This document shows, one piece after another, positions 7,437 through 9,897 of a DNA stretch of 64,000 nt (positions are counted from its first letter, which is position 1; every line of letters begins with the position of its first letter). Origin of the DNA: Candidatus Kaiserbacteria bacterium (GTDB taxonomy: Bacteria > Patescibacteriota > Minisyncoccia > Phycocordibacterales > JABMNX01); the NCBI GenBank assembly GCA_016186705.1, contig JACPLB010000006.1:16325-80324 (forward strand), given 5' to 3'. The translations under genes and the position numbers were made by a program. The notes under the pieces are model-generated. The model did not search any database and was not told where the DNA came from. It saw only the letters and a list, made by a program, of their open reading frames with translations.

Positions 7437-8366
7437 TTATTGTTGATTTACTTCAGGGTCGCTTAAAGAACTTAGCCAACTTTCGTGCGCAGAATCAATG
7501 GCTTTTACATTGGCGAAAATAGAGTCAATGCGATGGATTATAAGAGCCTCGGGCGCAGAACCAACGTACAAGAGAAATTCTCGGGTTGTTTCTAATATCA
7601 ACTGTGCAATAGGCAGTATTTGCTGAGGTCTGGGGCGCCCCCATTCAAAATTCGGGCTGAAGTCATCTTCGCTAAACTCGAGGTGATGATCCAAAATGTC
7701 CGTCCAAGTGCCGTGAATACTGCGAGAGCTACCGCCGTATAGCGCTATGTATGTGGACTCGAGACCAACGTCTTTGGTCTTCTCGTAGAAGTTTTTACCG
7801 CCCCAATCTTTTGGCTTATTCGGAGTAATGTCATCAATCTTTACTCCCGAGCGGGTTGCGTACCTTTCGATTGAACTGAGCATTCGATTCTCAATGTGCC
7901 ACTTTTCACCTTCTCTAGCGGTAATATTAGTGTGAATCACATCACGAAGTTTTCGCTCGTGCCGTAACGCATACCTCACATAGGAATCAAACAAATCTGG
8001 AGAAGCGTTCCTGATTAGGAACTTTATATTTACAAGATTCTCGAACAGCAGGCGCGAGAAAATAAAAGCGGTTTCTTGGCGCTTTTGACAGACTTGATCT
8101 AAATGAGCAGACAAGAGTTTCGCGAGTCGTACAAAGTTACCGCCAACGACTGCTTGGTCCCTATTCCACTTTTCAGATCCAGGTGGAAGCACACCGGCCG
8201 CAAGAGCCACAATTGAAGCTGTTTCTTTCATCAACTCTACTGACAAATGCATAAAACCGCCCTCGTCTGTTATCGAGGTAAGTTTTTCGGGTGTTGCCTC
8301 AGCGTGACTGATAGTTTTGAGTATCTCGTCAATATCTGTTAATCCAGTTTCTTTACTTCCATTCAT
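7437..8366 (-). CDS. hypothetical protein, distal gene of the low-GC cassette
   Basis: Track ORF 7437..8411 starts with TTG. The first ATG (8366) gives a 14-nt overlap with the upstream gene, suggesting translational coupling. No recognisable catalytic motif. AT-rich. Confidence 0.45.
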   Translation of the reverse strand: MNGSKETGLTDIDEILKTISHAEATPEKLTSITDEGGFMHLSVELMKETASIVALAAGVLPPGSEKWNRDQAVVGGNFVRLAKLLSAHLDQVCQKRQETAFIFSRLLFENLVNIKFLIRNASPDLFDSYVRYALRHERKLRDVIHTNITAREGEKWHIENRMLSSIERYATRSGVKIDDITPNKPKDWGGKNFYEKTKDVGLESTYIALYGGSSRSIHGTWTDILDHHLEFSEDDFSPNFEWGRPRPQQILPIAQLILETTREFLLYVGSAPEALIIHRIDSIFANVKAIDSAHESWLSSLSDPEVNQQ

Positions 8367-9042
8367 GAATATCGTGCTTGCCGTCGTTGTATAGTTTACG
8401 ACCGTATGCAACTGCTATTTCTGCAAGGCGAGCAGCTTCTCCTCGGTGCAAATTATCCAGTACATGCTGGAAATCTCTTTGCATTTCTTTCTTCCAACCA
8501 GCTTCCTCATCTTTCCACCAGTACGACACTCCGCCATCCATTAAATCTTTGCCCATTGAATTGAGGAGTCTTGCGACCTCGTTAATTAACTCATACATTT
8601 TGTCGCTGGATGGAATAGTAGGCAGTACGTAGTCCTTTTCTCGATGTGCGAAATATGTATCCCGTGCATCCTTTAGCATTTCCAGTGATTTCTTGTGTTT
8701 TTCTTTCAGCTCTTCGAATTCCTTTTCCCGATCAATCTTATACTTCTTGGCTTCGTCTAATAGATAAGAGAGCGTTCGTTTCTGTTTATTTTTCCCATCC
8801 TCAAACAATTGAGTTATAGATAATACAGTCGCATAACAGATGCCGCTTTCGAGTGACCGAAAAAAGTAATTATACTTTTTCATTATCTCGACGTTATGGT
8901 TTGCATCTTGGTTGCCGATATAAACTTTGCTTTTTGAAAGGGCACAACAAAATAACAGCTCACAGTATGTGCTGGTCTCGTATAAGTGGTTAAAGAAGCC
9001 ATCCCACAACTTTTTTAGTTCCTCTTTGTTGTTGGTACTCAT
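8353..9042 (-). CDS. hypothetical protein with HEPN-like Rx5H motif (AbiU2/Swt1-like guess)
   Basis: Predicted all-helical 229-aa protein. The motif KDARDTYFAHREKDY (R-x5-H with AH) fits the HEPN Rx4-6H signature. AT-rich. Middle gene of a three-gene minus-strand cassette. Confidence 0.45.
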   Translation of the reverse strand: MSTNNKEELKKLWDGFFNHLYETSTYCELLFCCALSKSKVYIGNQDANHNVEIMKKYNYFFRSLESGICYATVLSITQLFEDGKNKQKRTLSYLLDEAKKYKIDREKEFEELKEKHKKSLEMLKDARDTYFAHREKDYVLPTIPSSDKMYELINEVARLLNSMGKDLMDGGVSYWWKDEEAGWKKEMQRDFQHVLDNLHRGEAARLAEIAVAYGRKLYNDGKHDIHEWK

Positions 9043-9063
9043 TTTTCGTTTCCATAAAATTAT

Positions 9064-9627
9064 TTAATCTTCCTCGCGACGAATTGAATCCCAAGATGTG
9101 CGCCAATAGTTCTTTCTTTGCTCCACATCTTTTTCGTACTCTTTCTCAAATATTCTTTTATATAAATCCCAACTGTAAGCGATACTTAAATTATGATAAG
9201 GAATGACCCCATTCGAGTTATCGTAAAATTTTTCTTCTACTGCACTAATTTTTTCTCCGTTTATAATCGATATGTTTGATTCGATCATTTTGTCATACTC
9301 TTGTTTTGCAAAGTTGGTACAAAAACGTACCAAGGTATTTCTACCGATTGCATTTAAGAGATCATCGCTGGGTTTAAAATCTTCCTTTTTACCTTGAAAC
9401 TTTTTTATTTCCTCAACCTCTTTCTTTTGAAAAGCACTGAAACTATCTTCAAATTGTTTTTGCCAATTAGTAAATAACTTCTTACTATCAGAGATTTGTT
9501 TCTCAGAGAATAAAGGATTTAAGCTCGTTTTTTCGTCACTCAAAGATGGGGTCAATTCTTTCTTATTCTTAATCCAAAAGAAATATACAATGACTCCTAT
9601 AGCGATTATCCAAATTGGTGTGTACAT
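9064..9627 (-). CDS. membrane-anchored hypothetical protein, first gene of the cassette
   Basis: Track ORF 9064..9765 reads through the tRNA. Trimmed to ATG at 9627 (MYTPIWIIAIGVIVYFFWIKNKK = N-terminal TM). A TGnTATAAT-like -10 (ttggtataat) lies just upstream, between it and the tRNA. Confidence 0.45.
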   Translation of the reverse strand: MYTPIWIIAIGVIVYFFWIKNKKELTPSLSDEKTSLNPLFSEKQISDSKKLFTNWQKQFEDSFSAFQKKEVEEIKKFQGKKEDFKPSDDLLNAIGRNTLVRFCTNFAKQEYDKMIESNISIINGEKISAVEEKFYDNSNGVIPYHNLSIAYSWDLYKRIFEKEYEKDVEQRKNYWRTSWDSIRREED

Positions 9628-9690
9628 ATTTTTATTGATTAAATTATACCAAGAAACCCTTATTTTGCTTGGGTTCAAACTTGGTAATCT

Positions 9691-9779
9691 GGCGGAGAGG
9701 GTGGGATTCGAACCCACGGTCCCGTTTCCGAGACTCCGGTTTTCAAGACCGGTGCTTTCGACCACTCAGCCACCTCTCC
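9691..9779 (-). tRNA. tRNA-Ser (anticodon TGA), CCA encoded
   Basis: Reverse complement folds as a cloverleaf: GGAGAGG acceptor stem, GCTGAGTGG D-arm, anticodon stem CCGGT/ACCGG with loop CTTGAAA (TGA), long variable arm, T-arm GGGTTCGAATCCC, 3' CCTCTCCGCCA. Confidence 0.85.
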
Positions 9780-9879
9780 AATATACTTCGTATTGTCGCT
9801 TGCTAGCATAATGCTAGCAAACCGGCGGCTTCGTTGGTCGTCCTCTTTCAGAGTAAACAGAAAGCAGTCTCTGTTTACT

Positions 9880-9897
9880 CCACTCAGCCACCTCTCC
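9880..9897. repeat. direct repeat of the tRNA-Ser 5' end (partial tRNA duplication)
   Basis: ccactcagccacctctcc at 9880-9897 is identical to 9762-9779 (the 5' 18 nt of tRNA-Ser). The ~100 nt between them contains the perfect palindromes ttgctagcataatgctagcaa and gagtaaacag...ctgtttactc. Confidence 0.5.

Follow-up and report, generated by a model that had tools for sequence, protein, structure and literature searches.

What is a run of three closely packed genes doing beside a tRNA gene, and by what route did it come to lie there? The locus that raises this question belongs to a Candidatus Kaiserbacteria genome (Patescibacteria), of which we analyzed a 64-kb stretch, hereafter the window. Little is understood of how Patescibacteria (the candidate phyla radiation), with their very small genomes, acquire and exchange accessory genes, including those for phage defense. 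In the window, three minus-strand genes, here named C, B, and A in their order of transcription, adjoin tRNA-Ser(UGA), and a sequence-only reading had proposed them as a candidate defense or toxin module at a site of past integration. On balance, we favor the interpretation that positions 7232–9692 are a discrete mobile cassette, devoid of a recombinase and inserted by site-specific recombination directly 3′ of tRNA-Ser(UGA), the cargo of which is probably a defense or addiction module with protein B as its ribonuclease (RNase).

Boundaries and relatives of the cassette

Gene C (9064–9627, minus strand) encodes 187 amino acids (aa) from MYTPIW, although its mechanical open reading frame (ORF) extends into the tRNA. 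It is separated by 21 nucleotides (nt) from gene B (8353–9042, minus strand, 229 aa), the end of which is overlapped by 14 nt by the start of gene A (7437–8366, minus strand, 309 aa from ATG; a TTG-started ORF reaches 8411). The ORF coordinates thus bear out both the gap and the overlap reported previously, and ARAGORN likewise places a tRNA-Ser (anticodon tga) beside these genes, at 9690–9779 on the minus strand, where Rfam recognizes a tRNA at 68 bits. This tRNA gene is the integration target. Proteins A and C each have a 100% match at NCBI (HYW58_02475 and HYW58_02485, both from one 83-kb contig), and 100%-identical contigs also occur in runs SRR12113424, SRR12113430, and others.

The extent of the whole cassette (7232–9692, minus strand, 2461 nt) was established by reading its junctions and by alignment to a second copy, found on a 90-kb metagenome contig (OBEQ010951192.1, hereafter L114; other comparison loci are similarly given by L numbers). 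In L114, C-B-A is present at 92–95% protein identity, and window positions 7229–9630 align to L114 positions 5824–3414 with 91.9% DNA identity over 2412 nt, while the flanks of the two loci share no further similarity. The L114 cassette follows a different tRNA, tRNA-Ser(GGA), and lies between the two copies of a direct repeat of 90 nt (89/90 identical) that holds a tRNA-Ser-like 3′ half.

The order of parts within the window cassette is leader, C, B, A, and terminal module. The 36-nt leader CCAGATTACCAAGTTTGAACCCAAGCAAAATAAGGG (9657–9692, minus strand), which would form the right arm of the recombination site, recurs at other loci. At the proximal junction, the tRNA sequence ...CTCTCCG is followed by CCAGATTACCAAGTTTGAACCCAAGCAAAATAAGGG, i.e., ...CTCTCCG/CCAGAT... 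at 9693/9692; since the cassette starts directly after ...CTCTCCG, the encoded CCA sits at the junction. The insertion point is therefore the exact 3′ end of the tRNA gene, and the same type of junction is seen at other tRNA-Ser genes: the leader lies directly 3′ of tRNA-Ser genes in L023, L115, and L118, and of the tRNA-like 3′ half in L114. It also directly follows the ends of neighboring cassettes in L021 and L023, so that, overall, the leader was found after tRNA-Ser ends or module ends at six distinct loci. At its distal end, the cassette stops 39 nt short of the ATG (7192) of the next gene, which had been labeled PLDc_N and instead matches Pfam DUF5652 at 82.8 bits.

Synteny with related genomes points in the same direction. 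In about 20 order-level relatives (RuvX 41–50% identical), tRNA-Ser(UGA) lies between the DUF5673 and RuvX genes, with PilM downstream in nearly all of them, while L061 lacks the tRNA. The DUF5673-RuvX interval, tRNA included, spans only 169–209 nt in six relatives, which leaves no room for any gene; in others, the 3′ side of the tRNA carries 0.6–5.8 kb of varied DNA (interval up to 6 kb). Genes A, B, and C are absent at this site in all of these ~20 relatives. An orthologous cassette of normal composition at the same position in all related genomes would have refuted the earlier proposal, and this comparison came out in favor of an insertion at tRNA-Ser, although the relatives are too distant to tell how recent that insertion was. 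In six relatives (L041, L044, L051, L057, L058, and L062), tRNA-Ser(UGA) is oriented like RuvX and not opposite to it, indicating that the tRNA has been inverted in some lineages.

The terminal module (~165 nt; 7232–7400, plus strand, i.e., opposite to the cargo) begins with the left arm CGGGGACGATGTCCGGAAGTTTGAATC. Using nhmmer, we detected copies of it in the window, L008–11, L021–24, L026–29 (the window organism's own contigs), L114, and L115, with two copies each in L021–22 (L021 952–1098 and 2892–3053), L023–24 (L023 7773–7937 and 10401–10565), and L114 (5650–5821 and 6335–6485). All copies share one starting point, GC/GGnGAyGATGTCC (the slash marking a boundary) and unrelated sequence before it. 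Across six copies, pairwise differences by codon position amounted to 113/102/267, and this third-position excess is the pattern expected of protein-coding selection, here on a putative peptide of ~45–55 aa. The predicted peptide, GDDVRKFESKTW...KPKSDKGKNVVDYSVEN, read from the strand opposite the cargo, includes ...KWLKFKDIDKSIQELRAIYKxHPEWFEVPKPKSDKGKNVVDYS, and two sequence types can be distinguished, ...HPEWFEVPKPKSDKGKN... and ...YKENPxxFDxPxFAxKxY. Start codons are ATG in copies L023a and L114a and GTG in L023b, and no canonical in-frame start was found within the module in the window, L115, L021, or L008. The peptide has no Pfam match (ALOG_dom at E 0.13 is not significant). The module may be a small gene, e.g., for a directionality factor, or else the 3′ part of another target gene that travels with the cassette. 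A 125-aa ORF spanning 7026–7403 on the plus strand is most likely an artefact and was rejected as a gene: over its 5′ half, it runs antisense to the DUF5652 gene, and the module accounts for no more than the final ~56 codons (from ~7233).

Where cassettes are adjacent, module and leader abut directly (L021 1098 and L023 7937), and the joined ends form a site of ~50 bp with the core ...GGACATC-GTCACCGCCA-GATGTCC.... This site consists of imperfect inverted arms of 18–20 bp around a 10-bp spacer (GGTTCTAACTTCGGGACATC - GTCACCGCCA - GATGTCCAAGTTTGAACC), and the cassette-end site occurs once in the window, compared to 0 occurrences in 100 shuffles. When inspected by eye, the left arm together with the spacer looks similar to the T-loop and the 3′ acceptor end of tRNA-Ser (GGTTCGAATCC...CTCTCCGCCA), and such mimicry of tRNA-Ser would explain why genes with three different anticodons can serve as targets. 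In related Patescibacteria, the same leader and module enclose other cargo and form arrays, with cassette sizes of ~0.6–5 kb. A recombinase supplied in trans by the host would, in the mechanism we propose, move cassettes among tRNA-Ser 3′ ends and the ends of resident cassettes, and repeated insertion at the latter would build arrays. The module, given its coding-type selection, would perhaps provide a small recombination-directionality or regulatory protein. An empty site would then read tRNA-Ser ...CTCTCCG + CAATTCAAAAATG..., and the junction of a circular form would read module end ...GGACATCGTCCCCG + CCAGATTACCAAGTTTGAAC....

The three cargo proteins

Protein B belongs to the AbiU2 family of HEPN proteins. 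It scores 48.6 bits with Pfam PF18734 (HEPN_AbiU2; cut-off 26.8), with residues 34–170 aligned to positions 25–175 of the 193-position model, and all 24 of its 24 database homologues, every one from Patescibacteria, carry PF18734. The motif R127-D-T-Y-F-A-H133 (RDxxxAH, Rx5H), from which a HEPN protein had been guessed, is present in protein B, and R127, D128, A132, and H133 do not vary among 14 homologues, the most divergent of which, an AbiU2-like protein, shares only 26% identity. The guess is thus upheld by both an above-threshold Pfam match and a conserved motif. Since R/H-based RNase activity has been proposed for all Rx4-6H HEPN domains (PMC3710099), protein B is, by analogy, predicted to be an RNase using R127 and H133, of a type that has been associated with phage defense. 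A profile search of PDB with the B alignment returned no significant relative. Protein B matched nothing among plasmids and had no relative in IMG/VR, where the cassette-end site and the back-translated module peptide had no match either; a phage origin of the cassette was rejected accordingly.

As with other AbiU2 HEPN proteins, B scores above the PF18734 threshold and keeps the Rx4-6H motif, and its homologues are often in or beside restriction-modification (R-M) operons, in which AbiU2 HEPN genes were listed by Anantharaman et al. 2013 (PMC3710099). It differs in being only distantly related to the Lactococcus prototype, in being missed by the PADLOC Abi models, and in being carried, in Patescibacteria, by a small tRNA-targeting cassette. 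The operon partners published for the family are Sel1-repeat proteins and the Bxe_C0808 HEPN family (PMC3710099), and no Sel1 domain was seen in proteins A or C. Protein B is a new member of a known family.

Protein A belongs to a described family of unassigned biochemistry, with a match of 78.9 bits (cut-off 27.1) to Pfam PF18928 (DUF5677) over residues 72–234. This family comprised 1166 cluster representatives at E ≤ 1e-3 in a profile search; most representatives are stand-alone proteins of ~300 aa, and a few have N-terminal extensions in which no domain is recognizable. The AF2 model of protein A (pLDDT 87.7) is all-helical. Across the family, R105 and H218 are invariant and R80, K83, E109, E159, R161, S214, G219, W221, H294, and E295 are at least 90% conserved, a largely polar set that suggests an enzyme or a ligand-binding site. 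A PDB sequence search with the A profile gave nothing significant, and protein A has no Rx4-6H motif and no detectable profile or fold similarity to HEPN.

Among the PADLOC models, that of DitA was matched by 17 of 109 DUF5677 representatives (best E 2.2e-6), with the similarity falling on positions 308–422 of the 486-position model; for protein A itself, the match is at E 0.0026 and 14.7 bits, covering a quarter of DitA. DitA is part of Aditi, a defense system of two proteins without recognizable domain according to its authors (Millman et al., bioRxiv 10.1101/2022.05.11.491447). DUF5677 proteins and DitA are thus weakly similar in sequence and alike in having no assigned biochemistry. The two differ in that neither B nor C has a PADLOC match to the partner DitB at E ≤ 1, and in that protein A has 309 residues compared to the 486 positions of the DitA model. 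This similarity constitutes a first, weak sequence link between the unassigned DUF5677 family and DitA of Aditi.

The surroundings of DUF5677 genes are varied. A 2025 preprint reported them to be enriched beside serine recombinases in Bacillota (bioRxiv 10.1101/2025.10.07.681051), and those that we found on plasmids are solitary. Closer homologues of A have other partners, such as 110-aa proteins in L015 and L018, the former with weak matches to membrane proteins. In L021, a 274-aa protein (1151–1975), the gene of which directly precedes that of a DUF5677 homologue (74% identity to A), has several weak PADLOC matches to oligonucleotide-cyclase models (best E 8.6e-5), which hints at a nucleotidyltransferase + DUF5677 pair analogous to the MNT-HEPN (minimal nucleotidyltransferase-HEPN) pairing.

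Protein C consists of an N-terminal membrane anchor helix and a helical domain. Database searches returned six homologues only, and no family or fold match was found in Pfam, PADLOC, NCBIfam, PHROGs, or fold searches; NCBIfam and PHROGs had no match for A or B either. The earlier statement that none of the three proteins belongs to a well-known family hence holds for C, and not for B (HEPN_AbiU2) or A (DUF5677). In L023, a C homologue 90% identical heads a different cassette, followed by a 213-aa protein, a histidine phosphatase, and an AbiU2-like protein.

Joint function, mobility, and neighboring features

Do the three genes act together? If cassettes exchange cargo, A, B, and C could be independent accessory genes joined by shuffling, with no common function and with B as a solitary HEPN RNase. 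The distribution of B homologues fits this account well, as proteins 59–95% identical to B occur without A or C in at least seven contexts: beside an IS1595 transposase (L001); with tRNA-Ala and a 255-aa protein (L002); with HsdM/Eco57I methylases (L005–7, L005 also having a phosphodiesterase/PglZ-like protein); with a 67-aa protein (L008); with an overlapping EcoRI methylase and GmrSD (L012–14); with a TdeIII restriction enzyme, a methylase, and a LexA-like repressor (L115); and with a large serine recombinase (L116). Three of these contexts are R-M. The window and L115 are similar over gene B alone (686 nt at 92.9% identity), with homology beginning and ending at the gene borders, and the other two genes are similarly unattached, with A homologues found alone or with other partners and the C gene of L023 preceding different genes. 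This account fits less well with the 14-nt overlap of B and A, with a trio kept intact at 92% identity in two genomes, and above all with what occupies the slot after B. In the window, L114, L115, and L116, the following gene overlaps the 3′ end of B, yet it encodes DUF5677 in the first two, a 269-aa protein in L115 (4677–5486), and a 257-aa protein in L116 (4677–5450), with no Pfam or PADLOC match for the latter two. The L115 partner has an RNDAGH motif (RNxxxH, HEPN-like) and the L116 partner is unrelated, while the B homologues of both loci are 94% identical to B. This arrangement, in which the HEPN gene is constant while its coupled partner can be exchanged, is the strongest reason for thinking that A modulates B and, from the few loci at hand, suggests a "B plus variable partner" design. 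We thus consider a complete lack of common function unlikely, though it is the alternative that we take most seriously.

A second alternative is that the cassette carries a toxin-antitoxin addiction module, in which B would be the toxin and A its translationally coupled antidote, serving to stabilize the cassette and not to defend against phages. HEPN proteins are indeed frequent toxins of type II toxin-antitoxin pairs (PMC3710099), the B/A gene pair overlaps, the cassette is mobile and has no recombinase of its own, and L115 and L116 each have a different overlapping partner in the same slot. Nevertheless, a Pfam search (E ≤ 1) detected in neither A nor C the MNT domain that normally neutralizes HEPN toxins, B is also found with only a 67-aa or 74-aa neighbor or directly beside methylases, and a protein of 309 aa such as A would be a large antitoxin. 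An addiction module in this strict form therefore appears quite improbable.

We infer that the cargo has a defense or toxin function, but the three genes are probably not one obligate system. The vicinity of B homologues to R-M genes, GmrSD, a serine recombinase, and an insertion sequence agrees with the defense-island setting suggested earlier, whereas the notion of one conserved three-gene module was not sustained, as each gene has other partners elsewhere. In our preferred interpretation of a mobile cassette with a defense or addiction module, B would be the active component, cleaving RNA via R127/H133 as the effector of an abortive-infection-like or toxin-like module, and A, perhaps with C at the membrane, would restrain or trigger B as a regulator, immunity factor, or sensor.

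A number of observations weigh against this interpretation. On the functional side, A, B, and C were found together only in the window and L114, i.e., in two copies of one cassette, so that their co-occurrence is no independent evidence of joint function. The PADLOC models recognized no known defense system at the locus, with no match whatsoever for protein B and only hits of ~14 bits for A and C. In Lactococcus, the AbiU resistance phenotype is assigned to AbiU1, and not to AbiU2. In Enterococcus faecalis, the one DUF5677 gene that was assayed lay outside the five phage-protective ORFs (bioRxiv 10.1101/2025.10.07.681051). On the side of mobility, Pfam detected no recombinase domain in A, B, or C; no serine recombinase was found in the 64-kb window, in which tyrosine recombinases were not searched for; and a distal tRNA 3′ repeat was looked for at the far end of the window cassette and not found. 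Lacking both a distal repeat and a recombinase, the cassette is judged mobile from the comparison between loci and not from an intact element.

Base composition gives a mixed signal. The window has a GC content of 0.464, with a mean of 0.469 (sd 0.043) for its 64 ORFs of at least 100 aa; against these, gene C is the lowest of all (0.324, z = −3.4), gene B is lower than average (0.401, z = −1.6), and gene A is ordinary (0.446, z = −0.5), for a combined GC of ~0.40 across A+B+C. The AT-richness ascribed to the whole trio thus applies to C and in part to B, and not to A. An ordinary, lineage-specific, and immobile region, similar to L114 through shared ancestry and rearrangement, would be in keeping with this GC content of gene A and with the lack of an integrase in or beside the cassette and of a distal repeat in the window, but is hardly credible in view of junctions placed precisely at the 3′ ends of two different tRNA-Ser isoacceptors, the direct repeat around the L114 copy, the unrelated cargo enclosed elsewhere by the same leader and module, and the relatives missing A, B, and C at this site.

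Large serine recombinases were observed at two other loci, one in L052 (6384–7850) beside tRNA-Ser(UGA), together with a 352-aa gene, and one in L116 (2409–3956) beside the B homologue and next to tRNA-Asn. Both are candidates for the enzymes that mobilize islands at these tRNAs.

On the other side of the tRNA, an 18-nt copy of its 5′ end had been read as the footprint of the integration. The repeat itself is real: GGAGAGGTGGCTGAGTGG occurs exactly at 9762–9779 (the tRNA 5′ end) and again at 9880–9897, 100 nt beyond the tRNA, and chance would not be expected to produce an exact repeat of 18 nt within 64 kb. However, the second copy is upstream of the tRNA and separated by it from the cassette, while the cassette joins the tRNA 3′ end; as a scar of the cassette, it would lie on the wrong side and duplicate the wrong end of the tRNA, and this origin was rejected. 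Repeat and hairpin searches instead delineate a separate feature (9780–9897, minus strand) composed of the 18-nt copy, two hairpins, and then the tRNA, the first hairpin (9851–9880) having a perfect 11-bp stem (~16 bp by RNAfold). An Rfam scan of 7000–10400 detected the tRNA alone, and the hairpin region matches no RNA family. The same arrangement is found in a distant genome (L055, 2083–2219), with an 18-nt copy ~120 nt upstream of tRNA-Ser(UGA). The L055 copy is identical to the 5′ end of its own tRNA, although the L055 and window tRNAs differ at 3/18 positions, and the hairpin that follows is unlike that of the window in sequence. The copy is absent at the other 30 tRNA-Ser(UGA) loci examined. 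The 18-nt copy thus belongs to a separate feature of ~100–120 nt, which interrupts the tRNA sequence at the D-loop and may be a miniature insertion restoring the tRNA 5′ part.

Partial tRNA copies were also seen downstream of other tRNA genes. The last 18 nt of tRNA-Val(UAC) (13771–13844) are copied, with at most one mismatch, at 14027–14044, 183 nt downstream on the same strand, and similar 3′ copies lie 150–250 nt downstream of many tRNAs in the related genomes L030, L035, L036, L041, L045, L048, L056, L062, and L113. These suggest frequent small insertions, or their remnants, at tRNA 3′ ends in this group. Elsewhere in the window, the low-GC ORFs at 1408–2391 (0.39), 2430–4100 (0.37), and 54826–55398 (0.37) may be further acquired genes.

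Relation to known mobile systems

Insertion at tRNA genes and the serial accretion of elements are both well known. Tycheposons, in particular, are tRNA-targeting islands built by serial integration (bioRxiv 10.1101/2020.12.28.424599). The cassettes described here resemble them in their insertion at tRNA 3′ ends, in the partial tRNA copies between successive elements, and in forming arrays by repeated integration, with variable cargo that includes defense genes. Unlike tycheposons, they are tiny (~0.6–5 kb) and without integrase or replication module, and each closes with a conserved module of 165 nt, the substitutions of which follow a codon-like pattern.

Integron cassettes (attC) and IMEX offer a second comparison, being likewise small, promoter-poor, and without a recombinase of their own, with one palindromic site each and stacked at a fixed platform. 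Here, however, the platform is a tRNA-Ser gene and not attI or dif. In contrast to integron cassettes, moreover, the site does not fit, by inspection, the attC R′/R″ consensus (GTTRRRY), the end module is ~165 nt long with a protein-coding look, and nothing of the IntI type was seen in the vicinity. A limited search of the literature gave no description of tiny, recombinase-less cassettes with a tRNA-Ser-mimicking palindrome and a coding-like end module that are stacked at tRNA-Ser genes in Patescibacteria. It is thus conceivable, and we put this forward tentatively, that these loci represent an undescribed integron-like system, in which recombinase-less cassettes are captured serially at tRNA-Ser via a palindrome mimicking the tRNA 3′ end, and in which defense genes are shuffled.

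Taken together, these loci define a concrete mobile unit for which the boundaries are exact, a recombination site can be proposed, and the cargo occurs in several natural variants. They also provide a series of pairs in which an AbiU2 HEPN protein is joined by a variable partner, with DUF5677, an RNxxxH-motif protein, and others as candidates for the control of this HEPN family. If the integron-like interpretation is correct, such a system would be a vehicle that shuffles an AbiU2 HEPN RNase and its exchangeable partners among the tiny genomes of Patescibacteria.

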